The notes under the pieces are model-generated. The model saw only the letters and a program-made list of their open reading frames with translations, did no database searches and was not told the DNA's origin. Positions 3,001-43,794 of a stretch of DNA of 64,000 nucleotides are shown in pieces (position 1 is the stretch's first letter; each line of letters opens with the position of its first letter). Source of the stretch: Proteromonas lacertae (taxonomy: Eukaryota); assembly GCA_002245135.1 (NCBI GenBank), contig NGBS01001162.1:1-64000 (forward strand). Direction: 5' to 3'. Position numbers and translations under genes: made by a program.

Positions 3001-6000
3001 CCATATATTGAACCATATTTATGATCGATAAGTAATCCATTTGGTAAGACAGATGATACTTCTACTTCCGTATATATTTTATCACATTTTGGAGGTAATA
3101 TTTTGAAAAATACATTTTGAGGAATATAGAATTCACTTTGGCCATAACTGCAACTTGTTAAATTAGAATATATCACTAGTGTGGCTGTAAATATACAATA
3201 TCGATTATCAATTGTTTTGGCTGTTATTGTATATATTTCTTCATTTATATCATAACTTACTTTACCAGATATTCTACCATTATTATCAATTGATAATGTA
3301 CTTATTAGAGGAGGATCAATTGATTCAATAAGATTTATTGGAGTATTACATGTTGGATTAGCAGAAAATAATTCATTCACTTTTTTCATAATCTTTGAAC
3401 CATATTCGCATATTGGAATCTCTTCATATTTTATTATTGTAAAGGTTTTACTAAATATGGATATTTGATTGTTATTATAAGCACATTTGATTTTTACTAA
3501 TATCGAATTACCACTACTTATTTTACCACTTATTCTACCTGATTCACTATTTATTGATAAACCAGGATAACTACCATCAAACGAGTATGATTGATATTCT
3601 GGTTTGGATATTACATTTCTATTTGTATTATAGTTATTATATAATATATAATTATCATATTCCAATGTTGTTGGTTTATTATTATATATTCCTATTGACA
3701 TTAAATAACTAGAACTCCATCCTCTTTTATTTTGAACTTGAATTTCATAGTCTTCTCGAGATATTTCGGAGTTTGGAATTCCACTAATTTCACCTGTATT
3801 ACTATTAAATAATGATAATGGAGGAGTAATTCGATATATCAGATTGTTCATATCACCACTTATTACAGTTGGTATTGTTGAATCAATATTATCTCCTACA
3901 TAATATGTTAAATATTGTTTATTATAACTAATTGTTGGATATTTCAATTCACACTTCGAATGAACTTTCCATTCAGTTCTACCAGATACATATAAACATT
4001 GTTTCTTATCTAAACCTTCATAATGTTCTATACAATTCTTTGTCTTGTTTTCATTTGGACCACCTGATCCCATTTCATCATTCTCATCTATGCATTCAAC
4101 ATCTATATGAAATATAAATAGATAATTTAAATATGTTATATTATACAGATTATATGTAAAGTTATTTCTTCAAAATGAGAATTATCTCCTCCATCACCTT
4201 TTACTCTTATTGTTCTGTCATATGTTGAACTTGTTTTAACTGCTCCTTTTATTTCACCAGTATGAAAATCAATTTCAATACCTTCTGGTAAAGCAACAGA
4301 ATCACTATAGTAATATGAAGGAAATTCGGAATTCACTGGATGAGATGGTTTATAAGAAACATAAACATTTCGTATGAAATTCAAAGTATCAGGATAATTG
4401 AAACTTGTTGGAAGTGAATTATAAACAGCTATTGAAATAATAAATTCTTCACTCCATCCTCTCGAATTAAGTGCTTGAATTGAGAAATTCTTTCTATCAA
4501 ATGATTCTGTTGGTATTCCATTAAAACTACAACTTGAAGGATTAAATATATTAAATGATGGATTAATTTGACATCTTAAAAAGTTTGTTTGAGGGGAATA
4601 TGTAATTGTCAATGAGGCAGATGCATCTTTATAGAAAGATATATAATCTGTTGATGAAGTCAATGAAATATATTTCAATAAACATTCAGAATTCTGTTTC
4701 CATTTTATTGTATTACCTTCTAAAATACATGTTTTATTATCTAAACCTTCATAACCAGATTTACATTCGTTTATTACTATTTCATTCATTATTCCAACTG
4801 GATCTGAACATTTCATTTCTTCAGCTACTTTATAATTGAAGGAATTACTTTTTGAATCAAATGTGACAGTCAATTGACTATTTCCTGGTGTTACAGAACT
4901 ATCAACTTTACCACTTATTACTCCATTATATTTATTAATCGTAATATCACTTGGTTGATTAGATATTACCCAATTTGATACATCTCCATCTACTGTTGGT
5001 TTATATGAAACTGAAAAATCTTTATAAAATATCAATTCATCATATTTTACAGAATTGGCAGGACATACATTTCCAGGTTTATTGGTTGATGGATCTAAAC
5101 ATTTAGGTTCTATACATTAGAATATATAATTAATAAATATAATAATAATATACTATTCACTTGAATAAATACCATCGAAGATAATTTGCTTAAATCAAAA
5201 AATGTTATCGTAATTGTAAATTGAGTTCTTTCTAATTCAGTATATGGAGTTCCACTGATTATTCCATTCTTATTATCAAAATTTATGCCTAATGGTAAAT
5301 CTTTATCAATTGAATATCCTTTTATTGATTTACTATCTGATTCTGGTTTAGTTTCACTGTAATAACCAACATAGAATGATACAATCATTGGATCATAATT
5401 GATTGAACTTGGTTTAATCAATTCACAATTATCTGTTATTGAAGATGACCATCTTTGATCGGATAAACATTCTCGAACTTTATTTCCTTCATATCCACTA
5501 CTACATTTCATGTAACACTTATTACCTACACTACAATCTTTCCATTCATCTTCATTTGCACAATATTTCATTATTCCCCATCTAGGTACAAATTCTGCTA
5601 ATTGAATTCCTTTACCAAATGATCCTTCCCAATTCTTCACTTTTAATATTTTTATTAAAAAACCTTCATAAGGTAAATAATATGGATTATCAAATCCAAA
5701 ACTCTTTCCAACTCCACGATCATTTGATAATTCTCCTTTTTCTACGGAATGTAATAATATGATATATTCAGTTGGATTTGTATTACTAGCATCTAATACA
5801 TCAGTTATACCATATATTTCCCACTTATCAGGATCTTTATCAGCATAATTTGAAGCAGTAATCATATCATAACTATTCATATATAAAGCAGTATTACTAT
5901 TAAATGTAATAAGTACATTAACACTTTGTGCAGTGGAAGTCATTTGAGTATTTATTCTATCATCTGCCATTGGACAAGAACCATAATCAGTATTTCCAAT

Positions 6001-9000
6001 TCTACATTTTAAACTATTATAATAACCATCAAATACATTATCACTTACTCCTTCTTCTCCATACTCCAATTTGAATTGAAAATCACCTATTGCAGTACTT
6101 GCACTTGTACTATGTATTTCAATTGCAATATAAACAAAACCGACGTTCATTACAGATAATGGAACTTGAAATATATACTCTTTTGCTGATGAAAAGAAAT
6201 TAACAGCATAAGTTGTAGCAGTTACATCATTTCCATCAAATTTCATATTTCTTCTATATATTTGTTTTCCATTTATATAAATAATCACTCCATTTTTATA
6301 AGTGACAGTTCCCTTAATGAATAAAGAAGAAGGATGAGAATCATAATAGAAATATTTTCTTAAATATAAAACCCCATTTGTTGTTGTTGTTGGTATAGTA
6401 GCACTATTACATGTTAAACTCCATTTATTATTCTCAAAGCCTGTTTTCCAATTTGTTTCATAGACAGTATTATATTCATACTCTTCATCAGGAATATTCT
6501 CAATTATGTATTTATATCTAATAATATGTGTTTCAGTTGATTTATCATGAGAAAATACTGCTTCACCAAATAATTTTGTGTTTTTATCTGTTTTAACTAC
6601 CAATTTAGTTGTATCACTATCAAACATATCAGATCTAGAGAATATCACTTGAATTGCACCTCGAGCTTTACAAAATGAATAATAAAAATGATAATCAGAT
6701 TCAGGTATTATTGTAGTATATATTGATTCACTCTCATAGTTAATCTCGACATTTTGAATTGAATGACTATTAGATAATGTATATTCTGTTGTATATAATA
6801 AATCATAGTCATTTTTGCATTTATCTTTACTTATTAATGTTATTGTTGTTGGTTCACTATCTCCATGTGAATTTGTTGCTTTTATAATTATTTCATAAAT
6901 TTTACTAGTTTCTAAATAACCACTTATTTCTCCTGTTTTTTCATTAAACTCAATATGATGAGGTAATGATGTTGAGATTAATATAAAATGATCTGCACCA
7001 TTTATTACATAAGGTGAAACATAGATTGAGGTAAAAATATAAACATTAATCACTGTCTTTGAAAATCGAACAATTGGAATATCATTTGTATTGGTGGAAA
7101 AAGTTAGTGAAACTGTATTTTCATCATTACTGATTCGATTATAAGTATAAAGTACATTATCAAAATAGATCTGATAACTTGGACCTCTTTTTCCTCCATT
7201 AATAATTAAGAAATTAATAGATTTAGATGATAAACAACCTACATAACTATATTCTTCGATTGAATTATGACTTGTTTTACTATAATATATGTTAGATCCA
7301 TCATCAATCTTTACACTAAACAATCCATCATATGAATAATAATTCATAAAAATAAACCTATAACCTGGATCACATGGAAGAATAGTTAATTTCCAATTAT
7401 ATTCTATTAGATTCTTATAGGTTTTACATCTGACTGTCACAACTCCATCAAATGTCTCTTTAGGTGCTCCTTTTATTTCTCCAGTTTTTCTATCAATTAA
7501 AACACCTTTAGGAGCATTGATTAAAGCAAACCAAAATACATAATCATAATTTGCTATTGTAGGTTTTAAATCTGACAATATATCTCCCAAATGCATTGAG
7601 ATTTCTGGATAATATAATTCAATTTCATCAGATGGTTCTAACATTGTCATTGTGAATTTCACTGGATAATATCCACCATTACTATCTCCTACTTTTATTA
7701 ATGTTGTATATTCAACTGTAAATGATATATATTCTTCTATTTTACCACTAATACTCCCATCATTATCTAAATGTAATCCTTTTGGCAACGAGGGAGTAAT
7801 TGAAGCATCTGACAATGTTTTTCCAACAAAATACTTTGTCAATATAATAATCTTATTAGTTTCTATTTCCATTCCTATTTCATATTGAGCTATTTCATTA
7901 GTATATCTAAAAGGCTCACCATCTATTATAAACGAATTCTCATATACTGGATGATAATTTGTATTAATTGGAGGTATTATATTATTACCAGTATTATCAC
8001 TAATTAAAATATCATAAGTAACATTATCATCATTATTACTTTTCCAATATTTAAATACTAAATCTAAATTTTGTGGTCTACTGAACATTAATGCATCAGA
8101 TGTAAATTCTCCTGTTTCACATGTTAATTTTGAATACTCATTATAAAACTTTACATATAATGCACCACTTCCTTTCATTCTCCATCTTATGTGAATAGTA
8201 TTTGTTACTACTACTTTTGATTTATAGACTACACCCCAAGCTTTCATAAAATTTCTGTTTAATCCATCTGGTAATCTTGTTGATGGTTGAACTACACCAT
8301 TAGGAAATTTAAATAGTTTCTTAATATCTGGTTGTTTTGTATCAAAATCAGTATGTGAAATATCTGTACATTCATCTATTGATCTTAATGAGTAGTAATT
8401 TCCTTCAGTATATCCTACACAATATATTTCTCCCGTGTTATTAACAGTAGTATTTGTTGTAACTGAATAGAACATTGAATTATCCTTCTTATATAGTTTT
8501 CCTTCTAATTTTATTACTTTTAATATTGGATTTGATGTAGTGATAGAAATTTTCCCAAAATTATTAATCCCTGAAACATCAATATCTGAATCTGAAGTAG
8601 GAGTTGAATAGAATAAAGTACCAATTAAAGTAACATATTGACTAAAGCCATTTGTAACTGTATAAAAATTACTTGAAAATTCAAATTTTTGTAATGGTTG
8701 AACATCAACATAAAATGGATGAATATCTGTGTTTATTGATTGCATTGTTGACATACTAGGACTTTTATAGTTTGTATAAAGACCTTGTTGGCCATTTTCA
8801 GCAAAAGCTAATAATTTAATTGGATAATAACCTTTTGTTAATGTCACCTTATAAGTAAATGCATTATCCCATCCTGTAGTAACTCCTTCTGGTTTAGTCA
8901 TATTACTTCCAAAATATAAAGCTGCATAATCATCATATCTTATTTGAAACTGATATTCTCCATCTTCTTCTGCTTTGAATATTGCAGAAAATAAAATATA

Positions 9001-10231
9001 AAGCTGAACAAACTTTCCAGCTGTTTCATCACATTCTGTACATTCATAATGTAAATCTGTTATAACTCGCATATTCTCTATATTTCCTAAATGAAAACTC
9101 TTAAAGTGTTTTTCATATTCAAATGTATTACCTTGGTTTTCTTTACTTAAATACATTGTAAACCCTCTCATTGAATCTGGATCTAATATATGGAAAACAA
9201 TATCAACTATGTTGTGAATATGATTTGTAGTATCACTCAATATTAACTTCACTGGATAAGTTTTACTTCTATCAATATATTCAGATAATACTCCTACTAT
9301 CAATCCTGTATTCATATTCAATTCTAAACCAGGTAATAAAAATGATCCATCATCTAATATCACTGATGTTATTTCACATTTAGGTGGTCCAAGTATTACT
9401 GTTGTAATTGGAGTTACATAAATATCCTTCTGAAGTGTATATTGACATTCAAATTTGGGATATACAGTAATTTCTATATCAACTATTACAGATACACCTT
9501 TAGCAAATGTATAGTTGAATTTATGAATAACAGAATCCATTTTATATTTTAAATTATTTATATATATCATACCATTATTATGTAATGTAAATCCTGTTGA
9601 TAAAGCTGGAGTAACTGTTGTTTCTATTACTTTGGAATTACAAATTGGATAGATTATTCTATCTTCACCAATATTTAGTTCAAGTGGGGATTGTAATGAA
9701 CATGAATAACTTGAACTACTTGTAGCTGATGCACGAATTGTGATTGTTAACTGTGTTGATATTGTATGTTCTCCTACTACTGATACTGTACATGGAACTT
9801 GATATACTTCTTCTTCTGGAATTCCATATATTGTTCCATTCTTCGCATCTATCACTAAACCTTTCGGTAATGATTCAGCTGAAAATGTATATGAAGAGGA
9901 ATAAGGTAAGACGGAAGGGATTTGATGTTGAATGTTTGTACCAATATATCCATTTATAGTGATTTGAGGATAATTTATCTCAAAAGGGTAAGGATCATCT
10001 ATGAAATTATTACATTTCGAATATACGACAATTTTTTTCAAACATTTGTTCCCACTCAATTGCACCACCTTTATTCCTACATAATCTCTGTCTCTTACCA
10101 TATAGACCAGTTGGACAGTCAATTGAAGCTACTGTTCCTTCTTCAGTCTCTGACCACACTCCATCCTCTGGGCACTGAGCTCCAAATATTATGTTAATCA
10201 TAAAAAGCACAGTTATCAATTTTAACCACAT
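1..10231 (-). CDS. Giant secreted/surface protein (>3300 codons, runs off window start): signal peptide, HRM-like Cys modules, many putative-Ig (He_PIG-like) repeats, PA14-like domains, jelly-roll carbohydrate-binding-like domains
   Basis: ORFs 10010-10231, 5110-10122, 4136-5035 and 1644-4073 join in frame via GT-AG introns 9999-10026, 5110-5153 and 4103-4146. Recurrent LPxGLxIDxxTGxISGxP motifs; PA14-like GxYxFxxxYDDY; CxxDGxWxxT...C...G...RxC modules. The part below ~1650 needs about 8 frameshifts to stay in frame. Confidence 0.85.
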
Positions 10232-17506: not shown

Positions 17507-20500
17507 TTACTTTGCTGCTGCTTTGGGAGTAGTAGCTTTAGGTGGTGCAGCTTTAGTAGCTGGTGTTGCTGCTTTTGGTGTAGCAGGTTTTGCTGCTGCT
17601 GTTGTCGTTGTTGTTGCTGCTGCTGCTGTTGGCGTAGTTGCTGGCTTAGCAACTGCTGGTTTTGCATCATCTTTCTTTTCTTCTTCTTTACTCTTATCTT
17701 TAGATTCAGTTGATGTAGTTTTACTCTTTTCTGATTCTTCAACTTCTGGTTTTGTAGAACTTGTTTTACTAATTGAAGAGTTATCTTCACTTTCATTGTT
17801 ATTCTCTCTCTTGGAAGTACTTGCAGAGATATTACTTCTTTTAACAGCATCTCTTTCACTATCCAATTTCTCAGAAACATTATTAACTTCAGATGAGAAC
17901 AAGGTAGAATCATTAAACGAATTCTTAGTATCTTTCTGTTGTAAATCAACACCAATATGAGATTGATGAATATCACTTGGACGATTCTTATCATCTCTTT
18001 TACTGTAAGATGAACCAGTTCGAGTTGTTCTTGTTTGAAGACTGTTATTATAAAATGCAACATGCTGTTTCAATGCTGCTGGATCAGTTTCCTGTATAAC
18101 AATTGATACTATAATATCCTCTAATACAGTTTCTAATGTCTTTATTGCATGTCTTCTGAATCCTCTCATTATATCTTCAGTTTCATGAATTAACCAATAA
18201 TAGTCAGAGTTTAAGAATTCTTCATATAAGTTTTTGGAGATAAAATGATTAACAATTGCAGTTTGTAATTCATTGAAGGCATTGCTATTACCTTTACCCA
18301 TTTCAGTGTTAATTTTAGAAGTCATATTGCTATCCAATATTTCCAATTCCTTAGCTGAACCACTTAAATAAGTTGCAAATATAGCTTTTTCATCTTCTCT
18401 TAACTGTGCTGCATCAGAGATATTCTTATGTTTCTCAATATCTAAATATAAATCAATATATTGAGAATAATTCTCTTTTGATGATAAAAACACAGCAAAT
18501 ATATGACTCTGTAGTTTATTATCTAATAATTCTCTCATTTTATTCTTCACATATTTTGGTTTTAATAATATTTGAGATATTTTTCTATCTTCCATTAATT
18601 TATGTGGTCTCATAAATGGAAGCATATATAACCATGATATAATCCAAGAATAAACCCAAACCATAATGTAATATATCTGTTCACCCTTTCCTACAGCTTG
18701 AAACACTATTTCAAATACGCAAAAGAAGAAAGTAACACCTAAGAAATAATATTGCAAGCCGCGGAAGAAGAATGAAGCACTATTTCTTAATAAATAAGCT
18801 AGACATCCAACCAGTAGAATACCAACAGCTAATTCAACTTTAAATACATACATTTCATCATGATCTTCACATACAGTATCATAATATGGTCTAATTCCTC
18901 TTGTTAAATCAATTGTAGTAACAGCTTCCGTAGTATGAGTTGTACAGCCAATTAAAGCTACAAAGAACATACAGATTGTATATGTCAATATTTCTACTCT
19001 ATAGAATGATTTTGATGGCTCTTGTCTTTTCATTCTTACTATTTCTTCAGTAGTTGATAATACCAATAACAAAAATGCGAAATACACAACAAAATATTCA
19101 AAGTAATTTCTAGCTGTACAAAGACTGGTAGTATGTGATCCAGTTTGTACAATGCCATATATCGACAACATTATACTCAATAACGGATATAACATAGTGA
19201 CATATGGAGCACAAACAGTATCCCAGTATTTATTCTTTCTAATTAAATTGAATATAAACACAAATTCTACAATAATTTGAATAATGCCAAATAATACAAA
19301 TATTACACCAATAGCACTATCAGAAGCAATATAATTATCATTAATTTCTCTAACATAATTCCATGAAACTGGATATATAGCTCCACAGGTACAACCACTA
19401 TAACTACTATCAGCTTTACAGGTTAATTTACTTTCGTCTGGATAATATACACCTTTATTACATACAGGTATACTTGATGGTGCAACTATATTACTAGTGA
19501 CATTATTATACTTAGGATTCAATTGAACTTGTACTGCCATTCCTTGCTTGGCTTTATTGTTATATCCTTCGAAACTGACAGGTCCAAAGAATGTGTTCCA
19601 TGGTCTGCATGTACAACTATCAGTACAAAGGTTTAATCCATCACTTCCTGATGTTTCTTCTGTACAAGTCGCCAATGAATCTTTTGCTTCAATCATATTC
19701 TGAGCAAATGTTTTCTCATCCACTTTATCTATTAGTGAATTTAATTTTGCTTCTAAGACACGTTGTAATGTCATACCAGTAATAATACCTTCAGCAAAAT
19801 AACGATAGTTACCATTTAACTCTGTTATACCTTGTGGATATTTCATTGGATCAGTATATTTAGAGAAGTGATTATCAATATAATCACCAACTTCCTGTGA
19901 AGTTCCCATATATCTACCTTTTACACCATAACCCATATTGGGAATGAAAGTAGCCATAAAATGCCAATTGCTTGGATCCTGTCCACTATTTAATGGTTCT
20001 ATAATAATTAATAATAATATAATATAATAAATATATATATATATATATATATATACTGCTAACAACATCATCATATTGAATTCCAAATGCAGCTTTTGGT
20101 GTAAATTCTTCCATTTGCATAATCTTCATAAAATTAGTACTATAAGCATCACTTGCAAGTATTACAACATCTGGATTTAATGCTTTGATATATTTAATCC
20201 ATTTAGCAGCAGATTCATAATTCACATTTTCATTTTCACTACTTAAATCTACTTTAGGATATAAACATTCATCTTCATCACAATCTGACTTTGAATCACA
20301 TACACCAGATTGATCTTTTGAAGGAGGATTTAAATCACTTACATACTTAGTGCATCTCTTTAATAATACATTTTGATCACTTAAAGCTTCTAATAGTAAT
20401 CTACCAGCATCTTGAATCTTGGAGGATGTTCTTGTATCTCCTAATATAACTATACTATTAGCATGATATCTCTTTTGTATAGCTTCTTTTATACCAAAAT

Positions 20501-21177
20501 ATAAGCCTGTTTTATAATCAGGAAATGGTGTTATTGTGTAATAAGTTGTTGAAGTTGATGCACTGGTGGATGGTGTAAAATCACCTGAATTGGCAGCTAT
20601 AATTGGTATTGTTCCTTTACTATTTACACCTGTTGTTGATTTGGAGCTGTCTGCATCTATAACTGTCTGTATTTCCTCATTTCCTAATGGTGTAACTATG
20701 AATCTAGCTCTATCTTTACTAGGAGTAGCTAACAGATCAGCCACCCAGGTTTTTAAATTTGCTATAACTGTATTTGTATCTGTACCACCTTGTATATCTA
20801 CTACTTCCAAACAGATAGGTTTACTAAACCCAGCTTGGCAATTGCCACTATTTGACACATGCTGACCGTCAATGCATATGTTTTTGAAATAATCTCTCCA
20901 CATCTGCATGCCTGCTTTTCTTGCAGTATCTATTTTTTCATAAATAATAATCAAATATAAGTAATACCTTGACCACCATAATATCCTAAAGTATTAACAG
21001 CCATAGCTATATTTATTGAATCATTACCACATGTTTGTACATCACCGTCGTCTAATATGGTATAAGCAGCATTACTATTTAAACACACAGCGCAATTCTA
21101 TTTATTTATAATGAACATACAAAATATACTATAATATATAAACAAAAAGTTATTATTATAGGTGTTTTATATTTCAT
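17507..21177 (-). CDS. Class C GPCR-like receptor: signal peptide, periplasmic-binding-protein (Venus flytrap) ectodomain, 7TM, RGS domain, Ser/Lys and Ala/Thr/Pro/Lys-rich tail
   Basis: Three introns (~21098-21129, ~20930-20967, 19999-20056). INIAMAVNTLG...AGMQMW and LNPDVVIL are type I PBP motifs. Seven hydrophobic helices ~18615-19320 with CTARNYF, an ECL2 Cys and LAYLLRN. RGS box FAVFLSSKENYSQYIDLYLDIE...IFATYL...LYEEFLNSDYY at ~18198-18530. Confidence 0.8.
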
Positions 21178-25528: not shown

Positions 25529-26488
25529 CTAACAATCATATTGTTTCTGCAATAAATACAACCTTTTACGTTTCAATGAGCAATATCCACATCCACTTTT
25601 ACCAGATTTAAATCTGAATTTGGATTTCATTTTTTTACATCTAGAGCACATTCTCCCATCTTTTATTGTAGAGGAATCTTCCCAATCTCTTAAACATCTC
25701 CAATCTTTGATATTTAATGAACAATCCAAACATATTTTCTTGTCAGAATATAAATCATCAAAACATGTAAAAAAGAGAAAACATTCTTGTATGTTGACCT
25801 TTGCATCGCATAAACAACAACGTACAAATTGATTTATAATAGTTTTCGATGATATATCATCTTCATCATCTTTTGAAAACTCACTTTCATCATTATTATC
25901 GATTTTTGTACGTAATCTCAGCCATCTCTTTTTTAAAAGACAATAATCACAATATTTGTTCTTATTTGTGAATCTATAGTAAGACTTTACTTTGTGACAT
26001 CTGCTGCAAATATTAGTTTTAACAGAATTTGGTTCATTCTCCCAATCTTTCAACTTTCTACATTCCCAAATATTCACTGAACATTTTAGACATACAAAAC
26101 TCTCAGAATCATGATTTCTTACCACAAACATAGTTTTTAACATAACCTTTTTATGACAAAAACAACATTTCTTTAGAGTTTTACTTAGGTCGCTATCATT
26201 TGTCTTATTTGGTCTTTCTTTCTTAGATTCTGAAACCTGTATATCAGTAGTAATATTATCTTCTATATAACATATTTTTTCAATATCAATGCTTGTATCG
26301 CTGTAATCATCTATATTAGTGTAAAAGAAACTATCTTGCTCACAAAAAGGATTGCTGCCATCAGAATATGATAAATAATCACCATAATCTGGATTGGTTG
26401 TTAGAGGTGGCAATTGAAGGTCTTCTAGTTCATTATCCCTCATTTTCTGTTCATGAGGATTTAAACCCATTAGTCCAATATTTTGCAT
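25529..26488 (-). CDS. Intronless protein with two tandem 8-Cys (4 x CxxC) zinc-finger-like units
   Basis: Both units read CxxC..CLxCS..DWE..CSRCxKxK...F...CxYCxLKxxR; acidic N-terminus. Confidence 0.8.
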   Translation of the reverse strand: MQNIGLMGLNPHEQKMRDNELEDLQLPPLTTNPDYGDYLSYSDGSNPFCEQDSFFYTNIDDYSDTSIDIEKICYIEDNITTDIQVSESKKERPNKTNDSDLSKTLKKCCFCHKKVMLKTMFVVRNHDSESFVCLKCSVNIWECRKLKDWENEPNSVKTNICSRCHKVKSYYRFTNKNKYCDYCLLKKRWLRLRTKIDNNDESEFSKDDEDDISSKTIINQFVRCCLCDAKVNIQECFLFFTCFDDLYSDKKICLDCSLNIKDWRCLRDWEDSSTIKDGRMCSRCKKMKSKFRFKSGKSGCGYCSLKRKRLYLLQKQYDC

Positions 26489-27301
26489 GTTATTTATATG
26501 ATGTTACAATTTTTATATAAAAATACAACTATTCAAATTGATAAATAAATGGTATGATTCCTGCTTATATAATTTTATATTATATGTGAAATTTATAATA
26601 AATATAACGATTATCAATTCTTTGAAACTAGGATTTTATATTTTTTGAATATACTACAGATTATTGGCTGATTGTGATTTTTGAAATTCTTGTTGCATTA
26701 GCGCCATTTTAAATATACCTCCCAAATGTAAAATATGGCGCAAAGTGATGATCATATTAATAAATCAAATAGTTTTTGTTTTATATTTATAATAACAACT
26801 AGCAAGAATTGAGTAAAATTAATCAAAATTAAAAGTGTACAAAAATGTATCAATATAAAATTATATTATGTAATGGATGATTATATGCTAATATGACTAT
26901 TGTTATCTTATATCGAAAATAATCAAAATATATTAATTACGAATTATATTCCATTTTTCAATATAATATCTTTTCTACCTAATACAGCTCAACTAATAGC
27001 ATAAGAAAAGACTATCATTGAAAAAGCTACTTTTGGCTAATGAAAAAACATAATAGTGAATTCAATACCTATAAATCTTAATAAATAGATACTATGGAAA
27101 TATGCAACATATTAACCACAAAATATACATTGTTGAAATTTAGTAAGTTGTAAGCAACCCATTCACTTCATAAAAAATAATGCACTATTTATTTGAAAAA
27201 GTATAGCATTTTCAATGATAGAATACTACTATTGTACATTCTCTGACAATGTAATTCATTTGTAAATATTACATGTAATTTTTTCACACACCCAAAAATA
27301 T

Positions 27302-29408
27302 ATGAATGAGCTAGAACAGAAAGATAGGGATGCTTTATACGTAATTGCAACCGAAGTGATAGAAAAAGTTGCGAAAGGATATTTAGAAGATTTAGATCCG
27401 CAGCTATTAATCATTTCGAAAGTATTGTGTGAAATATTTTGCAATAGGTTCAAATATCGCCGAAACATGATAATTTTAAATCTTCTTTACTTCGTTTTAA
27501 TTTTCGTACTTTAAATGACATGAAATGTCCTTTTGTTCCAAGTGTATTAGTTTATTTGTAATTATATTGTTAGCATATTCACAAGACTTGTGACTTAAGT
27601 ATGTCTGTGTGTTTGGTTCCAAATTTTCGATTATTTTATGTATATTTTGAAGTATGTACATAACTAGTCTTGTGCTGATTGTCATATGAGTGTTGTTCCA
27701 CCTAAAATGCAAGACTGGACTCCTGCTGGAAAACATGCACTTTTGCAGTTATGTAATTGTAAAATAAAAGCAAAGTTAAATTTAGCTCCATCAGTAGTAT
27801 TTCATCCAAAAAGAGTGAATGAATCGTATGATAATGCACTATCATTAAGAAAGCGTGATTTATGGTATAAAATGCTTTTTAATGATTTGAGACTTGTATA
27901 AAGATAAAATATATATGTATATATATTTGAAATAGGATAAAAAAGGAAGAGAAATCTTAAAAGAAAGAGGATTAAAACCATATAAATTATTTGGAGGTAA
28001 TTACTTTGTTCGATGGCCAGGCTATGGTTATCCAAAAATCAAAGTGCCTGATGAATTACCTGTTAAATCTGAAAGAGGATTAGCAATACCTGCATTATCA
28101 CCATTCATGGAAATTCAAGGGTTACAAGTAAAACCATATGATCCAAAGAAGGAAGGTAAAAGATATCACACAGTTGGAAGTAAGAAAGGTGGAAGTCAAC
28201 CATTATTTTCATTGCCAAATGGTGATACACCTGTTTATTGTTGGATTCCTAAGACAATAATCAAAACAACAGATGAGAATGAAGCGTTTAAAATTGGTAT
28301 ATGTGAAGGTGGATTAAAGCCAGCTATTGCTGCAAGTGTTATGAATCAAGTATAAGTCATATATAATATTATGTGTATTTATGAATAGATATTTTTAGGT
28401 TCTTTTACAAGAAGAATTAGTGATTATACATTATTAAGATATTTAATGGATATTGAAAGAAAGATCCTTAATGTTGATATTGGATCATCTATAATAGTTG
28501 TTTATCCTGATTCAGGTACAACTGGAAATCCTGATGTATGTTACGATAGTTTATATAGTGTATTTGCATGTGCAGCTCAAGGATATGATGTGAGAATAGG
28601 ATGGTGGGGTCAAACAGGAGAAATAGAAGAAACAATGACAGATGAAGAACAAATAGCCTGCAAATGTGATATTGATGAATTAGTAATAAAAGTACCAAAT
28701 TATAAGAATGTAATACAGGAGTTGTCTATCTCTGAATTCTATAGATTTATACCTGAAGAAACGATGAATTATTTATCAAGTAAAGGTTTTGGTGATCCTG
28801 ATGAATATCCATTTGATCATACAGATGTAGTTTCTGACTATTACACAGTGTATGATCCAAATCATACAGATCCCATTGATAAGATTGTAGAACCAATAGT
28901 TCCAGTAAAGCCAAAGATTAAATATGATAAGAAATCATTATTTGAAGAATATTTAGGTCCATTATTAGATCCCAATGTAGATATTGAAGAAATAAGGAGA
29001 AAAGAGAAAGAGAAAAAGGAAATGATGGAGATAGAAAAACAAAAGAGAAAATTATTATATCAACAAATTCCAATTCCTCCTACAAGCAGTAAAGCAGAAT
29101 TATTTGATCAATTATTTGGTGATATTTTAAATACAAAAAGTGAGAATAATAAGAGTGATAAAGAAAAGGATGATGATGATGATAAAGATGATGATGATTA
29201 TGATAGTTATGATGACAGTGATTATAATTATGGAGATGAAGATGATTACAGTGAAAAAGAAATTAACTATGAAGAGGATGAGAAAAAAGAAAAGGTAGAT
29301 AATATCAATAATGAAGATGGTGATAATGTTAAAGAAAAAGAGAAAAATAAACGTGTAATGTCAAAGAGTGAATTATTTAACAGTCTTTTTGGGACTATTA
29401 GTTTATAA
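27302..29408 (+). CDS. Primase-like protein (647 aa): putative Zn-binding motif, Toprim domain, acidic tail
   Basis: Exons 27302-27421, 27448-27543, 27574-27639, 27668-27895, 27936-28349 and 28389-29408 form one open frame via five phase-0 GT-AG introns of 26-40 nt. Motifs CPF..H..CADC, IGICEGGLKP, VVYPDSG, WWGQ, DIDEL. Confidence 0.75.
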
Positions 29409-29530
29409 CATAAAAGAATAGCATTATATATATATATATATATTTGTATGGTATTTAACCAAATTTTTATAAAACATACAGCTTGAAAGGCTTGAGTATA
29501 TTTTGATTTAATTTTATAGTTTTCTCAATA

Positions 29531-30721
29531 ATGAGACCAATTGTGTTGTTATTTTCAACTTTAATTATTGCATTGTTCTCATCGGTTTATTTTATAGGAA
29601 AACTGTTAACATCAGAAGATAAACTAATTAAAGAGAACAATAATTTTCTAAGAAAAGAAGGTTCATCGAGTAAGTTAAATACAAATAGTCTATCTAAAAA
29701 CTCAAATGCAGAAAATATTCTTGCCTCCATAAATTCACAAATCAATACAACAACCCATTATCAATCACTGCGAGCAAAATTGAATATTGTAATTGAAAAG
29801 GGAGTAAAAATATATAAAGATTGTATATATGATGGAGGTGGGCTTGGTTGTGGAAGAGCACAAACAGAACCATTATACCCAATAAGGAATTACAAATTTG
29901 AAAGAGATATAACAAAATATACATGTGGCTTTCCATTACATTACAATGCAGTGAACTTACCCCAAAGGAAATGTGGAAATAAGAAGTTAATAATCGGTGT
30001 ATCAATGGCTCCAAATAATTTTCTACACCGAATTATATTTAGAAAAATATATGAACCATTCAAAAATGTTGCACAATTCTACTTTCTCATGGGATTGTCT
30101 CGGTCTGATGAAGATAATGAGATGATAAAAGAAGAAAATTCAATATATGATGATATAGTGCAATATGATTTTTATGCATCTTATTTCAATTTAACAATTC
30201 AATTAGTTCAAATGTTGAAGTTTTTATCAACTAATTGTAATAATTATACATTCTATTTACACCATGTGGATGATACATATATGAATATAAATAAATTCAT
30301 TGAGTTGTATATTAATAGTGATCATAATATGATTGCAGCTAGATATAGTGATAATAGGGTAATAAAGGATAGTGAATCAATCTATTATATGCCAGATTCT
30401 ATTGTTCCTGATACTGTATATCCTATTCATCCAAGTGGGCCTGGTTATGCTGTTAGTTCACGTATTATTCCTGCTCTATACGATGCAACTGAACATGTAA
30501 ATCAAACTATATGGATTGATGATGCTTATGTTGGTTTTTTGTTAAGATATATAAATTCTGATATTTTTGATATTTTAGAAAGAACTCATTTAGATTTCTG
30601 TGATGGAGATGGACAATGTAAAGAACATCCAAATGATTTTAATGAAGTTGTGGTTGTTCATAGTCTTAAGCCAATAGAATTGTTATTTATAAATTCGAAT
30701 TATTCAACATCAATTTTTTGA
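29531..30721 (+). CDS. Beta-1,3-galactosyltransferase-like (GT31), type II membrane protein
   Basis: N-terminal TM; EENSIYDDIVQYDFYASYFNLT, HVDDTYMN, SGPGYAVS and IDDAYVG are GT31 motifs. Confidence 0.9.
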   Translation: MRPIVLLFSTLIIALFSSVYFIGKLLTSEDKLIKENNNFLRKEGSSSKLNTNSLSKNSNAENILASINSQINTTTHYQSLRAKLNIVIEKGVKIYKDCIYDGGGLGCGRAQTEPLYPIRNYKFERDITKYTCGFPLHYNAVNLPQRKCGNKKLIIGVSMAPNNFLHRIIFRKIYEPFKNVAQFYFLMGLSRSDEDNEMIKEENSIYDDIVQYDFYASYFNLTIQLVQMLKFLSTNCNNYTFYLHHVDDTYMNINKFIELYINSDHNMIAARYSDNRVIKDSESIYYMPDSIVPDTVYPIHPSGPGYAVSSRIIPALYDATEHVNQTIWIDDAYVGFLLRYINSDIFDILERTHLDFCDGDGQCKEHPNDFNEVVVVHSLKPIELLFINSNYSTSIF

Positions 30722-30865
30722 TTAGCTAATTGTGTCAATTTATAATGTATTATTTTGTAGTTTTAGTGTTTGTATAAAACATAATGAATGAAAAACATTA
30801 ATATTTCGATAATTGATAAAGTTTGGCTTGAAGTGAAACGATAAAAAAGATTTTTAATCAATAAA

Positions 30866-31574
30866 ATGGCAGAAGGAGAAGATAATACTAAAACCATAAA
30901 TTGTATTTTATTGGGGTATATTTTATATGCTAATAATAATATCATTTTAGAGATAAAGGTGTTGGTAAAGATACACTTTTTAATAGAATAAAAGGTGACC
31001 AAACAGATCCTGGTACTGCTACTTATACAACAACTTATGAAGGATTTACATATAAGTTTGTAGTGAGATCCACTCATGGTATAATTTTTATTAGATTATA
31101 AATAATAGGACAAGAGGAAGCAAAACACATTAGAACAATGAGTTATGGAACAACTGATTTATTCATTTTGATGTTTTCAGTTATGAGTACAGTTTCACTT
31201 CATCACGTTGTCAATACTGTATAAAATATCTAATTAATCTTTTTTAATAGTGGCATCACGAAGCTGAAGAATATCCAGGTGGTAAATATGCTATGGTTGG
31301 AACAAAAACAGATCTTACCAACGATGAGGAATTGAAAAAGAAAATATTAGAAACACCAGGTGAAAAAGTCGTTGAAGAAGGAGATGTATATTTATTAATA
31401 GTTATATTGTTATTATAGCCTGAAAGAATCTGTAAAGAATTAAATTGTATAGCGTTACTTAGATGCAATGCAACATCTGATGACTTGAAAGACATTTTCG
31501 AACCATTAGCAAAATATTATTATGATAACCGTCCAGCGCCACCAGAAAAGAAGAATAGTTGTGTAATTATGTGA
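30866..31574 (+). CDS. Divergent Rho/Rac-like small GTPase ending in CAAX (CVIM); missed by the ORF track
   Basis: Introns 30916-30950, 31079-31108, 31219-31250 and 31386-31418 give CILLGDKGVGKD, STHGQEEAKHIRTMSYGTTDLFILMFSV, VGTKTDL and KKNSCVIM*. Confidence 0.85.
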
Positions 31575-35895: not shown

Positions 35896-36382
35896 TTCTT
35901 TAAACGAAGTTTTTCTTTTTAGATCTATCTTTATCGTTATTATAAGTGTGTATAGTGAATTTTTGGTATTTTTCAAAACAAAATCAATCAAAAGACAAAA
36001 GTGTAGAAATGAATTTGTTGATCAAAAAATCAATCATTTTTGTAGTATTAATATGTAATACAAATTCAATATACATGTAATATATAAATGGATTTTATAG
36101 AGTTCTTTCTCTTAACACAGAAATGCTACCTTGTGTTATTCAAGTCTTTTTTATATTATCACAGAAGTTTTAAACTATATTACAACTAAAGGATTGTAAA
36201 TGCCATAAAATGAAGTGTTAATTCAAAAATACTGTTTTAAGAAATTAAAAACTACACTTAACATTTCGTTATAAAATTTCAATACAAATGTGGGTAAGTG
36301 CAACGATTAGTTTAGATTTAAATAAGGTATCTAGGAGCAAAAAAGATCTTTTCAAAATTTTTGTTTTTTTATAAAACTGAAT

Positions 36383-39300
36383 ATGAGATTCTGTATTATA
36401 CTATGCATTATTGCTTTGGGTATTTTTATATATTTTATTTTGTAGTTGCCTCACAGTCGTGTAACGTCGATATTCAAAACGAATATCAAGTGGGTGATGA
36501 TATAGATATCCATGTATCATGCACATTCATTCCTTCACAATTTACAGTCTATCCTCCTTTAATTGGATTCGAAGTGAATTACCCAACAATCAAGGGTAAA
36601 GCTATATTACCAATGCCACCTACAAAATACCAAGTTCGTATTGGAAATGGTGATGAGGTTATAACTGTGGTTATAACTTTGAACATTGTAAAAGCTTTTT
36701 GTAGATATGGAGTAGGAAGAGAGTTTCATTTACATAATGAAGTATATTACCGTATATCAGCACCAGAATGTAATGTTGCTGTTACAAGAATATGGGCAGA
36801 AAACTTACCCTCTGGATTATCAATTAACAACAATGATGGTTCAATAGAAGGTGTTGTGAAAGAAAATAGTGAAAAAGTAGCTACTATTTTTGTTAATCAT
36901 GCATATAACAACCAAACTTTGACATTTAAAACTGATTTTACAGAAGCTTTCAAGAATAGAATGCAAATAGTGTATTATGATGGTGATATAGGTCAGGATT
37001 TTAGTTGCCAAGATGGTTATAATAATCTAGATCAATTTCCAAGATTCTTTAATGGCTTTTATGTGAATGAAAACAAAAGAAAAGGTCCATATTTAGAAAA
37101 TATGACTGGTGATGGTTTTCATTTAGATATATGTGCTACTTGTGGTGATGACTATACTAATTATAAAGGTTTTAAAGGATTTCATGGTGTATATGGTTTT
37201 ATAAAGATTGATGAAGAAGGTTCTTACACATTTAAAGTAAAAGGTGATGATTGTATTCATTTCTACTTCTATGGAGTAGAACCAGCTGATAGAGCAATTG
37301 CTACAAGATATTACTATGAAGAAAAAGCTTCTAAGAGTTATTATTTATATCCTGGTTATTATCCAGTATTCTTTATGCTTGGATTTGATGGTAAACCAAG
37401 TGGTTATGAAATATGGGCAAAGAAAGATGATGGAGGGTTTGAATATTTCCCATTAAGTAAGAGTTTCACATTACCAGAAGCTAATATGGTGGATAAATTG
37501 TCATATCCAAAGATAGGTGATGATCCTGCTCCTGGTATTAGAGTAGTTAAAGATGGTGAAGCTATTCCAAAACCAAATGAAGTCTTCCCTATATTCGAAG
37601 GATATGCTGAGAATTATGCAATGAAAGGAGATAGTGCATTATCAATTGATAGTAAAAGTGGTCATTATACTGGTACAATTAGTGGATGTCCAAAAATAAC
37701 TTATGCTGTTATTAAAGCTTATTCTTCAGTATCTTCAGCATCTTTTCCAATTAGATTCGAATGTGGTGATGTTAATACTATCTATAATAAAGAAATAATT
37801 GTTTCTTATTATAAAGCTGAAACATTAGTAGAACTTAAATCATTTGTTGATCCAAGTGGTACTCCATCATATGTAAAGAGAATATCTAAATTAACAGATA
37901 ATATTCAATTAGAAACATCATATTTAACTGAAAGTGATGTAGCTGAATGGAGAGGTACAATAAGTGGTAAAGGAGATAAGAAAGTTAAAATATCATGTAC
38001 TGGAGCATGTTATGTTAAAATACAGTCAGTTATATTGAGTGTATTTGGAACAGAATCAGATAAGACTGAAGCTACAGTGTCATTATCTGGAAATAACGAT
38101 ATTGTTGTAGTTTATTATAGAACTGATGCAACTGTTGATGCTGCTTTTTCATTAACATTTGATGATGCGGAAGTAACTGCTGATAGTGAAGTATTTGTTT
38201 TAAGAAAAACAGAAGTTGATTATATGAGAACTGATATATCTTATGCTGATGTTAAATTAGGTAATTCTCAATCAATTAAAATAACACATTATGGTGATCA
38301 AGAGCCAGAATCTTATTCACTTGATACAAAGATTCCTGGTTTATCTATTTCAGGAAGTACAATAACATTTGCACCAACAGAACCAATGCTACCAATATCA
38401 GCTATATTTGTAGCTACATTAAATGGATATGAATTTAGATCTAGTGTTACTTTAGGTGCATATACTATATATGAAAAGTCTGAAGTTACATATGATGAAG
38501 TAGAATATCAAGGTAGAGTTGGTGATGCTGTAGAAATTCATCCATCAAGCACAGGTAATTGTGTATTTATTTACACTGATACTAGTTTACCATCTGGTTT
38601 ATCTATTGATGTAAAGAGTGGTGTAATATCTGGACATTATATGGAAGCAGTAACTAAAGATGTAAATGTAATCTGTGATACTTATGAACATAAAACTGAA
38701 ACTGCTTTATCGTTTATTGTTGATGAATGTGAAAATGGAGGTGAAATTATTCATGTTATGGTTACAGCTGGACCAGATCCATCTACTTTTAAAAGAGCTT
38801 CATTAATGGATGATACTGATGGGATTGTCTATTTTGCAGAAGATGAAAATAAAATACCTTATCAAGAATTTCATTACTATAAATGTTCAAATGAAAATGC
38901 ATTTTTAAGTGTAGAGAATAATGAAGCTATTAAAGGTACTTATTTAATTGAAAGAGGTTTTAGTGCATTTGTTAAAAGAGGTACATATAAAGATAGCGAG
39001 GATTCAATTCAAATCAATTTAAAAATCACAGGACCTCCAGATCCATTTTATACTGAAAGTACAAGTGATACAAGTATAGGAAATACAATGACATTTTATA
39101 CAAATGTACAAACTGCATACTTCTTAAATGTAGGTGGTAGTGGTGCAGTTGCTTTTGTTATTAAACCTGATTTAAAGATACCTGGTTTAACAATGGATGA
39201 ATATGGTACAATCAGTGGTATGGCTACAGTCGCACAAGAGAAAGTCTATACATTCACAACATCAAATCATGATGGTGAAGAATCTGAAATTCAATTCACA

Positions 39301-42300
39301 ATAATTGTTAAGGACTGTGATAAAGTATCAGTAAATATATATTTCCCATTCATTGGAAAATCATATGAAGATTCAAGTAGTAAGTATGATGGATTTAGAT
39401 TTATATCTGGTAGTAATTATCTGTTATATCAAGATGGTACATCAACAACTAAATCAACATATCCATTATGTTTGGAAAAAGGATCATACACATTAGAATT
39501 AGCATCTAAGAATGAAAATGGTTGGGTTGATAGTTATATCACTTTATATGTAAATGGAAAAGAAACATTTAATGGAATATACTCTAAATCTGGTGCTAAA
39601 TCATATCAAGTTAATCTTAATACTTATGTAACTGAAAAACAAAATATTGAATTGAAATATACTGATTATGTAACTAATGATAATTGGAAAGAAGGTTTAA
39701 ATGATGGTGGTAATACAGTAAGTGGTAGTATGTATACTAATTATGTTGGGGATGTGAATAATCATTATTCAATTGCAAGATATTATACTCATCAGTTTAA
39801 TGTGAATAGCTATGCTGCAATATATAGAGTTACTGTTCATTATGCATATGGTGTAGCAATGTATGTAAATGGATTAGAAATCTTTAGAGAGTATTTACCT
39901 TCAGGTAATTTAACTGCTTCAACTACATGTTCTTCTGAAAAGAAAGATACTACAAGAACTATTGATATTCCAGGTTCTATACTTAAAGCAGGTAGTAATG
40001 TTTTAGCTGTCGAGTTACATAGAGATGGTATAGCAAGCTCAGATGAAGTTGCAAAAGATACATTCAGAATTGAATCAGTTGTTGAAATTAATGGTTTAGA
40101 TAATTGTTATAATTTGATTTTATCTAATGCTGCTAGTAGAGTATCAGATACATCAATGGAGAATATTTTAGATGCTGCAAAATATACAACATACTCAGGT
40201 CAAGCAAAGCAAGATCCATTGACAATTACATTTAAGAATTTAGTAGCTATTAATGATTTTATACTTCGTGGTACAGGTGCTAATCCACCAACGACAATAG
40301 CAGCAACTGCTCGTTTAGGATCTACAACAAAGACATTAATTAAGAGTAAAGATGTTGAATTTGATGAATCCCAATCAATGAAATCAATTGCTAGTGAAAT
40401 ATCAATGCCAATTCAATCAATAGGAGTGACTTTTGGAGGCAGTGGAACATTAGAATTAGCTGATTTTATACCAAGATATTGTGTTGGTTTTTGTGCAGCT
40501 GTTACAGAAGGAGATGATTATTGGCCAGTAGGTAGAAGAGGTGATACAGTTGAAATAGCATGTAAAGTTGGTTATACAGGTAGTAAAACAAGACTTTGTG
40601 ATGAAAATGGAGAATATGGAACTGTAGATGATAATTGTGTAGAAACTCCACAAGCACCAGTAGTTAAGTATGATAATGAAGTATATAAATTCACAAGAAC
40701 AGGTGCTGATGTACAAGTACCTCAGCCAAAAGTAACTGGTGTTGCTGAAGATAAATTAAGATTTGAAATTAAACCAGATATTACAGAAATATTCCCACAT
40801 ATGACACTTGATACAAAAAATGGAGAAATATATGGATATATTGATCCAAGTTATACATCAGGCCCAGTTACAGATCCACCAACAACAGCAAAACCAACAA
40901 CACAACCACCACCTGTGACTGATGCACCTACATCTCAACCACCAACAACAGAAGCACCAGCACCAGAAAGAAGAAATAGAAACTTAGCTGAATTAGTTCA
41001 CACTATTACTCAAATTTTTACAATAACTTGCTATAATAGAGATCGTGAAGAATTAAAAAATTCTGTTACAATCACAATAACAGCTGATGATCCAAAATGT
41101 GATGCTTCTGAAGGATTCCCAGAAACTTATGTTGGTGAAACAGTAGAAGGTATAAAATGCCCAGAGTATATGCAAGGAAAAGTTTTAAAAACATGTGAAT
41201 ACAATTTAGAGAAAAGAGAAGCAGCATTTGGTGGAGAAGATTATTCAAAATGTGAATATACTAGAATTGGTGCTTGTCAGTTTTATGGTACTGGTACAGT
41301 ATATAAAGATGTAATTAACAGATTATATCAAAATGGTTGGACATATGTCGTTACAGAAGCAACTGATCTTACTTGTTATGATTCAACAACTGGTGGTCAG
41401 AAATTAACTTGTCCTGATTGGTTACAATTACAAAACAATGGAACAATTATTGTTGAAGGTATTGAAGAATCTTTTGAAGATATTTACATTACTTTTAAAG
41501 TAACAAATCCACCTACTGAAAAGCCTTGTAGTCCAACAAATAGATTTCAGATAAGATATGGTGGAAGTATCCCATTGACTGGATTTAGTTATAAAGAAAA
41601 AGAATATAATTATACATTATCTGATGATCTTGATAAAACAATAACTCCAATTTCTGCAATAGCTGGTGTTGATCACTGTATATCAGATCCACCACTTCCA
41701 GCTGGTATTTCATTCTCACCTGATTACTTCAATAAAGCTGGTAGAATATTAGTAAGACCATTAGGTGCTTCTCTAGGCAAATATAAAATAACATGTGCTA
41801 ATAGAGTTGATTCAGTGAGTGATACAATAACAATTAGTGTAAATGCTCCATCTTGTAATGATAAAGATTATGGTGTACTTGAAATAGGTGGTACTAAGAC
41901 ATTATCTTGTGGTAAAAATAAACATGGAAAGATTGTTGTATATTGTAATAATAATCATGAATATGAAGTAAGAGAGAATTCATGTCAAAATTCAAAACCA
42001 ACCAGATTGTCATATAATAATAATAAAGCTATTACATTTTATAAAGATGTTACAGCAGCACCTCAGAAAGTAGATCATGATGGAGATGTTGGTATTGCTA
42101 AATTTACTACTACTTGTAAAATATCTGGTTTATCAATTCATCCATACTTAGGTTATATGGTTGGAACACCATCAGTATTAAATGTTGGTGTACAACAATG
42201 TAGTATATCACTAACACAAGATCAAACTGTTAATGTTACAATTAGTTATAATGTTCGACAAGGTGTTTGTACCTATATGGGTGAGACAATTAACCCTGGT

Positions 42301-43794
42301 GGAATTCGTGAATATGCATGCAAGGAAGGTGAGAATGGAAAAGTAATAAAGAGATGTCCATCTCAACCAGATGCAAATGGAGGTTATAACATTATAGATG
42401 AATCAACATGTAAGAAATTAAAACCAGTTACATTTATTTACAGTACAAAATCATTAGTACTTAAAGTAGGAGTAGCAATGAATAATATGTTACCAACAGT
42501 TACTTCTATTGCTACGTTTTCAGTAGAACCAGAATTGCCAAGTGGTATTACATTAAATCCATCAACAGGTTTAATATCTGGAACACCAGAAGAAATGCAA
42601 GATAATAAACAATATGTATTTTATGCAGAAGATGAATGGAAGAATAAATTTGAAATGAGTATAAGAATTGTGGATAAGACATGTCCTCAAAGAGATGGAT
42701 TCCCTGAAACTCCAATTGGTTCATTTGGAGAAATTCCATGTACAAATGGTAATGATGGGTATGAAAGAAGAAAATGTAATGATGATCAGACTTGGGATGA
42801 AACAATTGATGATTCAGAATGTGCAGATGCTGAACCAGAGTTAGTATATCCAGATAAATTATACTCATTCTTCGTAAATGTTCCAATTGATCCAATTATG
42901 TATGAGAAATCAGTTGGTATTATTTCATATATTGCAGATGATTTACCAATAGGATTATCAATTAATGAAATTGGTACAATATCAGGAACTCCAACAGCTG
43001 AATCTTCACGAACAGATTATAAGATAACAGGTGTTACTCGTAAATCAGAAATTATTGAAACATATATTTCAATATCTATAGAAGGATCATACTGTCCAAC
43101 TAATGGTGGTTTTAATAATACAGCTGCTGGTGAAACTGCATTTATGCCTTGTACAGAATCAACAACATGGGGTGTATCATCAAGATATTGTAAAGGACCA
43201 GAAGAAACAGGAACAGATCAAGCAGAATGGGAACCAGCAATTGAATGTAATAAGACTGAAGCAATATCTGGAAGAAAAGAATATCAATTTAGTCTGAACA
43301 TAACTAATATACAATATGATGTTACTTTAGAAATATATAATGCTGTATATGATGCAGTATATGAATTACTTTCAACATCATTTGAAGCTGATATTTCATC
43401 ATTAATGTATGTAGCTAGTGTAACTAGTGATAAAATAATGGTTTATGACTTTTATATATTCACAGAAAAGGAAGAACAAGAAGTTAAAGATATAATTACT
43501 CAAATGATAGTAGCAGAACAAGTAAAAACTAAATTAAAAGACAGAGACTATTCTTTTTTCAGTCAAACTGAAATTGTCGTAGGTAGTGAAGTGGAATTGA
43601 CAAAAACACATCAACCAAATGATGAGAAATCAAAAGATGAACTTCCATTAGCAATGATCATTGGTATAGCTGGTGGATGTGTTGTGTTGATATTGATTAT
43701 TTGTGTTTGCATTATTTGTTGCAGAATGAGATCAGCTAAACAGTCTACATTTTCAAGAGAAGTTCCAAAAGCAAAGAAAGCTGCTAGAGCATAA
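36383..43794 (+). CDS. Giant type I membrane surface protein: putative-Ig repeats, PA14, jelly-roll domain, HRM-like Cys modules, Pro/Thr linker, TM, short tail
   Basis: Signal peptide MRFCIILCIIALV via intron 36420-36445; PA14-like GSYTFKVKGDDC; repeated GxISGTP; TM MIIGIAGGCVVLILIICVCIICC; paralogous to the gene at 1-10231. Confidence 0.9.

Follow-up and report, generated by a model that had tools for sequence, protein, structure and literature searches.

DnaG-type primases are already known in eukaryotes: Twinkle is an organellar enzyme of this type. An earlier note on the DNA analysed here had set a DnaG-like layout against the AEP-type primases of eukaryotic nuclei; with Twinkle and PREX, however, DnaG-type enzymes as such are not new to eukaryotes. 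The apicoplast protein PREX is a eukaryotic organellar DnaG-type primase as well (PMC6523293). Both proteins are nucleus-encoded and share Toprim primase chemistry, and both are organelle-targeted T7-type helicase fusions. Toprim primases are defined by a Glu and a DxD motif (PMC4538821).

A second group of described relatives are plasmid proteins of cyanobacteria, among them CyRepX1 and CyRepX2 (Slr6031 and Slr6090) of Synechocystis pSYSX. A fragment of pSYSX carrying slr6031 (CyRepX1) replicates autonomously (bioRxiv 2023.10.09.561360). The function of the related DUF3854 domain has been called unknown (PMC10079941), and we found no report of primase activity for the cyanobacterial-type subfamily in the literature searched. 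The same search, which took in few of the subscription journals, gave no description of a eukaryotic group of such proteins, and the available sections of PMC6523293 and PMC4814812 do not cover one. Here we describe a gene of this kind in a 64,000-nt stretch of DNA (the window).

Gene structure

The results confirmed a single spliced gene of 647 codons plus stop at 27302..29408 on the + strand, with six exons and five introns (Table 1). It had been proposed earlier that short ORFs join as one 647-aa frame through five phase-0 introns. This was borne out, and all the protein motifs quoted in support are present in the spliced product. Every intron runs GTA..TAG. At junction 5, the homolog P0016 reads MNQ-IFLGS and is intronless, and P0015 diverges directly after MNQ, i.e. 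at the donor; at junction 4, an ungapped alignment with P0017 spans the junction. Introns 1–3 and the first ATG were placed from splice signals, without homolog support. Since the insert is missing from P0016, reading through the stop codons can be rejected as an alternative to intron 5.

Into exon 5, the longest open splice path with GTA..TAG introns was 170 codons. In 1000 dinucleotide shuffles the maximum was 99 codons, and none reached 106; the upstream exon chain is therefore beyond chance. With a family HMM of 76 rows from which every Blastocystis-like row had been left out, the spliced protein scored 160.6 bits and the separate exons 73.3, 53.5 and 3.3 bits, a gain of 30 bits, and HMM positions 14–288 of 305 covered aa 143–434. 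Alternative open paths numbered 936 under loose signals and 20 when GTA..TAG alone was allowed; some of them begin at later ATGs (27520, 27601 and 27686), and exon 4 may optionally be split by one more intron.

Table 1. Exons, introns and protein regions of the gene, in coordinates of the window
Feature	Position	Strand	Description
Exon 1	27302..27421	+	aa 1–40; N-terminus acidic; of the whole gene model, the start codon is least certain
Intron 1	27422..27447	+	26 nt, GTA..TAG, phase 0; basis: splice signals only
Exon 2	27448..27543	+	aa 41–72; last residues CPFVPS
Putative CHC2-like zinc finger	27526..27685	+	aa 67–100: C67, H73, C96, C99; spans introns 2 and 3; weak
Intron 2	27544..27573	+	30 nt, phase 0; basis: splice signals only
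Exon 3	27574..27639	+	aa 73–94
Intron 3	27640..27667	+	28 nt, phase 0; basis: splice signals only
Exon 4	27668..27895	+	aa 95–170; CADC and first helix of the primase domain
Predicted DnaG-type RNA polymerase domain	27812..28766	+	aa 143–434: R181, Y247, E294 (28305–28307), K298, D349, D402/D404/E405
Intron 4	27896..27935	+	40 nt, phase 0; P0017 aligns ungapped over the junction
Exon 5	27936..28349	+	aa 171–308; N-terminal subdomain of the primase core and catalytic Glu
Intron 5	28350..28388	+	39 nt, phase 0; keeps the frame and contains two stops; missing from homolog P0016
Exon 6	28389..29408	+	aa 309–647 and stop; remaining Toprim fold, conserved linker, acidic tail
Conserved C-terminal region	28767..29129	+	basic stretch aa 505–532; first ELFxxLFG motif
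Acidic low-complexity tail	29130..29405	+	ends in second ELFxxLFG motif

Relationship to plasmid proteins

Exons 5 and 6 each matched the same cyanobacterial plasmid proteins in colinear order. When plasmid sequences were searched with a query that spanned exon 5, intron 5 (both of its stops replaced by X) and exon 6 as far as its middle, 19 of 72,556 records matched at E<=0.01. All 19 were cyanobacterial, which supports the kinship first suggested with cyanobacterial plasmid proteins in their N-terminal part, and three were annotated as CyRepA1 family. The same query found no match in phages, no match was obtained in viral contigs (searched with exon 5) or JGI metagenome contigs, and a word-index search with exon 5 gave nothing among 798 candidates. 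From GTDB, 80 loci were kept, of which 71 were titled cyanobacteria, six uncultured and three MAGs of other phyla, counts that are biased by the use of a cyanobacterial query.

The window protein shares with its nearest bacterial relatives, the N-terminal domains of CyRepX1, CyRepX2 and plasmid proteins annotated 'CyRepA1 family', a colinear series of motifs (RG, Y, LPNG.P, EG..K, PD.G, WWGQ and DIDE), and the pSYSX gene at 27957–31322, inside the slr6031 replicon fragment, scored 195.7 bits with the family HMM. Unlike those proteins, to which it is ~25–35% identical, it lacks the C-terminal helicase, the C4 ribbon and the plasmid location, and has introns and an acidic tail. The absence of a helicase domain noted earlier was verified: the 647-aa product contains no P-loop or helicase, two profiles of the C-terminal parts of Reps did not match it, and no Pfam helicase was found in exon 6.

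The label CyRepA1/DUF3854-like, also used earlier, needs narrowing: the primase-like domain is homologous to the N-terminal domain of the CyRepA1/CyRepX proteins, but the window exons match neither Pfam DUF3854 (PF12965; sub-threshold in two of 45 homologs) nor, for the three exons searched, NCBIfam CyRepA1. The NCBIfam model (NF042913) covers the helicase half, and since this half is missing, the window protein is not a CyRepA1 member. Some of the top plasmid matches (L001 and L003) have no helicase family match either, so the domain is a module used beyond Reps. One cyanobacterial-type Rep, P0056, has two tandem primase cores with a CHC2 finger in between.

On Bacillota plasmids, CHC2-DUF3854 primases that stand alone (e.g. 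WP_172418870.1) resemble the window protein in combining a zinc finger and a primase core without a helicase. In contrast with it, they form a separate clade (100/100), keep DxD and lack WWGQ, and these gut-type bacteria are therefore not the nearest source. Three of these primases (L093 4668–6098, L174 and L176) lie on large Bacillota plasmids adjoining ssb genes.

Predicted fold and active site

A 285-residue exon 5/6 read-through including intron 5 was modelled with AlphaFold2 from 70 alignment rows. The model had a pLDDT of 80.6 and a pTM of 0.83, and its long segment of lowest confidence, residues 139–156, is the retained intron 5. A Foldseek search with the model returned E. coli DnaG in its first eight rows (best E 3.9e-4). 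In the VIA structural comparison, which re-scores Foldseek's matches, the top 21 rows were all DnaG, T4 or T7 primases (Z 13.3–9.0) with both subdomains aligned, the best being B. subtilis DnaG 5guj (Z 13.3, rmsd 4.0, 214 aligned); the first non-primase fold was topoisomerase IV (Z 5.5), and no topoisomerase scored higher. The window protein is closer to DnaG (Z 11.5–13.3) than to T7 primases (Z 9.0–10.0), and it differs from Toprim nucleases and topoisomerases in retaining both subdomains of the primase core. The model thus supports the Toprim/DnaG-type primase fold put forward earlier and predicts that aa 143–434 form a whole DnaG RNA polymerase domain, beyond the Toprim fold alone. Language-model look-alikes of the homologs P0018 and P0054 were DUF3854, Toprim_2 and DNAG_N clusters (one source), and a PDB sequence search with the family profile gave weak primase rows only (E 0.13).

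R181, Y247, K298, D349 and D404 are each invariant in all 66 bacterial-type rows of the alignment, and E294, the Glu after the first Toprim strand, is kept in 65 of them; D402/D404/E405 also agree with the family. The DxD metal motif is absent, as the corresponding YPDSG (D349-S-G351) has Gly for the second Asp. Gly occupies this position in 64/66 bacterial-type rows, whereas all seven Bacillota outgroup primases keep Asp. With bacterial DnaG the protein has in common the predicted fold over the whole core, the catalytic Glu and Asp cluster and possibly an upstream CHC2 finger; it differs in sequence (~13% identity), in having DxG for DxD and in lacking a recognisable helicase-binding domain.

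It is improbable that the fold has been repurposed, as a metal-dependent nuclease, a nucleotidyltransferase or a catalytically minor DNA-binding scaffold. Such a change would be consistent with DxG for DxD, with the several chemistries served by Toprim folds, and with C-terminal 115 residues nearly as conserved as the core, but the whole primase core including its N-terminal subdomain has been kept, and DxG is common to the bacterial proteins, including CyRepX1, whose region supports plasmid replication (bioRxiv 2023.10.09.561360).

Zinc finger and terminal regions

A CHC2 profile of 65 fingers aligned all four ligands of the putative finger (C67, H73, C96 and C99), with a score of 3.0 bits that was matched by 43 of 3000 shuffles (p ~0.014) and three of 187 natural pieces. 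The position is in favour of a finger, and CHC2 is also present in the family members P0020 and P0056. The C4 zinc ribbon found in 37 of 48 long bacterial homologs has no match in the window protein, and the annotated tortoise-Blastocystis protein P0017 has no finger. Pairwise alignments of the N-terminal part with six eukaryote-like homologs gave no significant result; the best pairing was the CADC common to P0048 only, and 83 of 2000 shuffles were as good. Of the zinc-binding domain reported earlier, what stands is a weak CHC2 likeness with four ligands, which is suggestive only, while the C4 ribbon typical of cyanobacterial Reps is not matched.

Comparison with the relative P0014 showed 89 of 115 residues identical over aa 441–555; identity in a relative was 97/113 (86%) over the core (aa 328–440), 25/75 over the acidic tract and 11/17 over the terminal motif. 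The N-terminal 30 residues are acidic (8 D/E, 4 K/R).

Relatives and phylogeny

A phmmer search of 1.84 billion representatives gave 59 matches at E<=0.001. The top five were not Reps: they were three exon-sized Logan fragments (76–85% identity), the tortoise Blastocystis protein P0017 (44%) and P0018, and the best named homolog was P0017, from Blastocystis sp. Blastoise. On reading, 14 of the 59 were judged eukaryote-like (helicase absent, long low-complexity inserts, intron-like truncations) and 44 bacterial-type; P0031, a repeat protein, was dropped as a false match. In a look-up of 20 proteins, only two of the 14 eukaryote-like ones had a source that names a eukaryote: P0017, and P0052 from Calypogeia fissa. 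No human Blastocystis subtype was named among the matches, which the 50% clustering of the representatives could hide, and PHROGs gave no match for P0017 or P0018.

The tree was computed from 86 sequences, obtained by thinning 157 domain sequences at 55% identity, over the 284 of 916 alignment columns that were retained, with seven CHC2/DUF3854 primases of Bacillota plasmids as the outgroup. The window protein grouped with P0077 and P0017 at 100/93. Within the PDxG/WWGQ family, which separates from the outgroup at 100/100, this trio nests in an eight-row clade of likely eukaryotic proteins (100/100). At 96/82 the clade is united with P0023 and 65 bacterial-type rows, a grouping that leaves out P0060, a cyanobacterial Rep, and four further eukaryote-like rows. 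That all 13 eukaryote-like rows share one origin was not rejected (p-AU 0.40). Because branches are long and ten rows deviate in composition, the tree does not fix the exact donor or the number of transfers. The topology fits what an old transfer from the cyanobacterial-type family, not from gut Bacillota, would leave. Since the best matches form a eukaryote-like clade, the transfer predates the sampled Blastocystis lineages and is not peculiar to this genome. The horizontal acquisition proposed in the earlier note is therefore upheld in part: the best matches are eukaryote-like, not bacterial, as a eukaryotic family would give, but the clade still lies inside the cyanobacterial-type family.

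Two other eukaryote-like proteins have features of their own. The liverwort protein P0052 (CAM6098963.1, 2695 aa), which lies outside the window protein's clade in the best tree, carries DEAD/Helicase_C, a weak KH, the primase core (about 2018–2290) and a 3'-5' exonuclease. Residues 1–110 of P0057 consist of a hydrophobic segment followed by an Ala/Ser-rich stretch, a leader that we take, by eye, to resemble a bipartite plastid-targeting sequence. If P0057 is from a dinoflagellate, it would be a candidate primase for plastid minicircles.

Genomic setting

Eukaryotic genes interrupted by short introns are present in the window, which has a GC content of 23–33%; among them are genes for galactosyltransferase, dynein light chain, NifU-like, MFS, RGS, kinase and teneurin-type EGF proteins. 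A neighbouring small-GTPase-like gene has, by eye, GTAT..TAG introns of ~33 nt. Tortoise Blastocystis isolates are reported at 21–23% GC, and human isolates have mostly 30-nt introns (PMC10690189). Together with the best named homolog, these features make a stramenopile resembling Blastocystis the likely host. The GC3 of the primase gene is 0.165, compared with 0.11–0.22 in seven neighbours. A family scan of 36 ORFs of the window found no transposase, integrase or capsid families among them, and there are no bounding or terminal inverted repeats around the primase gene. The locus has no plasmid location, its neighbours being eukaryotic housekeeping genes. The primase gene has become a conserved gene of the host, and its domestication, already suspected, is supported by the introns, the host-like GC3 and the housekeeping neighbours.

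A recent insertion, a still-mobile element, an endogenous virus or bacterial contamination is highly improbable. The family is otherwise plasmid-borne, and the divergent upstream ORF encodes a CxxC-repeat protein without a family match, but the five host-type introns, the base composition, the neighbours, the lack of terminal repeats and the conserved relatives at 44–85% identity all speak against it. The ORF in question (25529–26503, - strand) lies head to head with the primase gene, with ~800 bp between them, and is apparently without introns; its product of 319 aa, in which CxxC clusters form two repeats, has no Pfam, NCBIfam or PHROG match.

Other genes of the window include an intronless iron-containing alcohol dehydrogenase (56099–57274, - strand; E 2.4e-100 to E. 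coli YqhD), which probably also came from bacteria; a receptor-like gene (17507–20993, - strand) whose product combines an RGS domain with several hydrophobic segments and a large domain at the N-terminus; and two genes for very large repetitive proteins, probably surface proteins (1644–10128, - strand, and 36322–43794, + strand).

Possible function

Our preferred explanation, to which we assign a probability of slightly under one half (about 0.48), is that the host gene encodes a stand-alone primase core, predicted to be of DnaG type and likely of ancient cyanobacterial-plasmid origin, which would serve as a helicase-free accessory priming or repriming enzyme, probably in the nucleus. The Glu and the Asp cluster would carry out Mg-dependent de novo RNA synthesis and produce short RNA primers on single-stranded DNA, presumably the template. 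The CHC2-like finger may recognise the template, and the conserved C-terminal motifs may recruit the enzyme in place of the fused helicase. The DxG for DxD counts against this explanation, as do the weakness of the finger and its absence from annotated P0017, and the fusion of another eukaryotic copy (P0052) to RNA-type domains.

A role in organelles was among those suggested earlier, and in this case the protein would prime the genome of the mitochondrion-related organelle as an additional primase, partnered by Twinkle or a different helicase. The leader of P0057 looks, by eye, organelle-targeting. The known eukaryotic DnaG-type primases, Twinkle and PREX (for PREX, PMC6523293), are organellar. 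The window protein, however, has an acidic N-terminus, a long acidic tail and no evident presequence, and Table S5 of PMC12129017, covering eight Blastocystis genomes among which the window's organism may not be included, lists a Twinkle-like protein with primase-type Toprim in 8/8, PriS in 8/8 and PrimPol in 6/8. An organelle role is thus not favoured and appears quite improbable: the presence of the usual primases in Blastocystis, together with the acidic N-terminus, favours an accessory nuclear primase. PrimPol in six of the eight genomes also means that repriming is not an unmet need, which argues against accessory repriming.

The main rival to the accessory primase is a small-RNA role, somewhat unlikely in our judgement, in which the same gene and chemistry would act in RNA metabolism, making short RNAs de novo or extending RNA ends for Piwi/RNase III silencing or RNA decay as a stand-in for RdRP. 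Archaeal DnaG is a precedent for such a shift to RNA work (PMC4538821), and in the same eight genomes Piwi is present in 7/8, RNase III in 8/8 and eukaryotic RdRP in 0/8 (PMC12129017 Table S5), but these counts are taken from other genomes. P0052 joins the domain to DEAD/Helicase_C, a weak KH and a 3'-5' exonuclease, but the window protein has no RNA-processing domain and P0052 lies outside its clade, although one origin was not rejected. That a cyanobacterial plasmid primase core was recruited, once or several times, into an unrecognised eukaryotic small-RNA system, being joined to an RNA helicase and exonuclease in the liverwort and standing alone in Blastocystis, where it would take the place of the missing RdRP as the de novo source of Piwi guides, seems to us decidedly unlikely.

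The gene points to an additional and apparently undescribed source of eukaryotic DnaG-type primases beside Twinkle and PREX. At this locus, a cyanobacterial-plasmid type of gene is maintained under constraint in what is probably an anaerobic gut protist that does not photosynthesise, and its stand-alone core of 290 residues is a simple test case for the primase-like domain, including whether the DxG variant primes.
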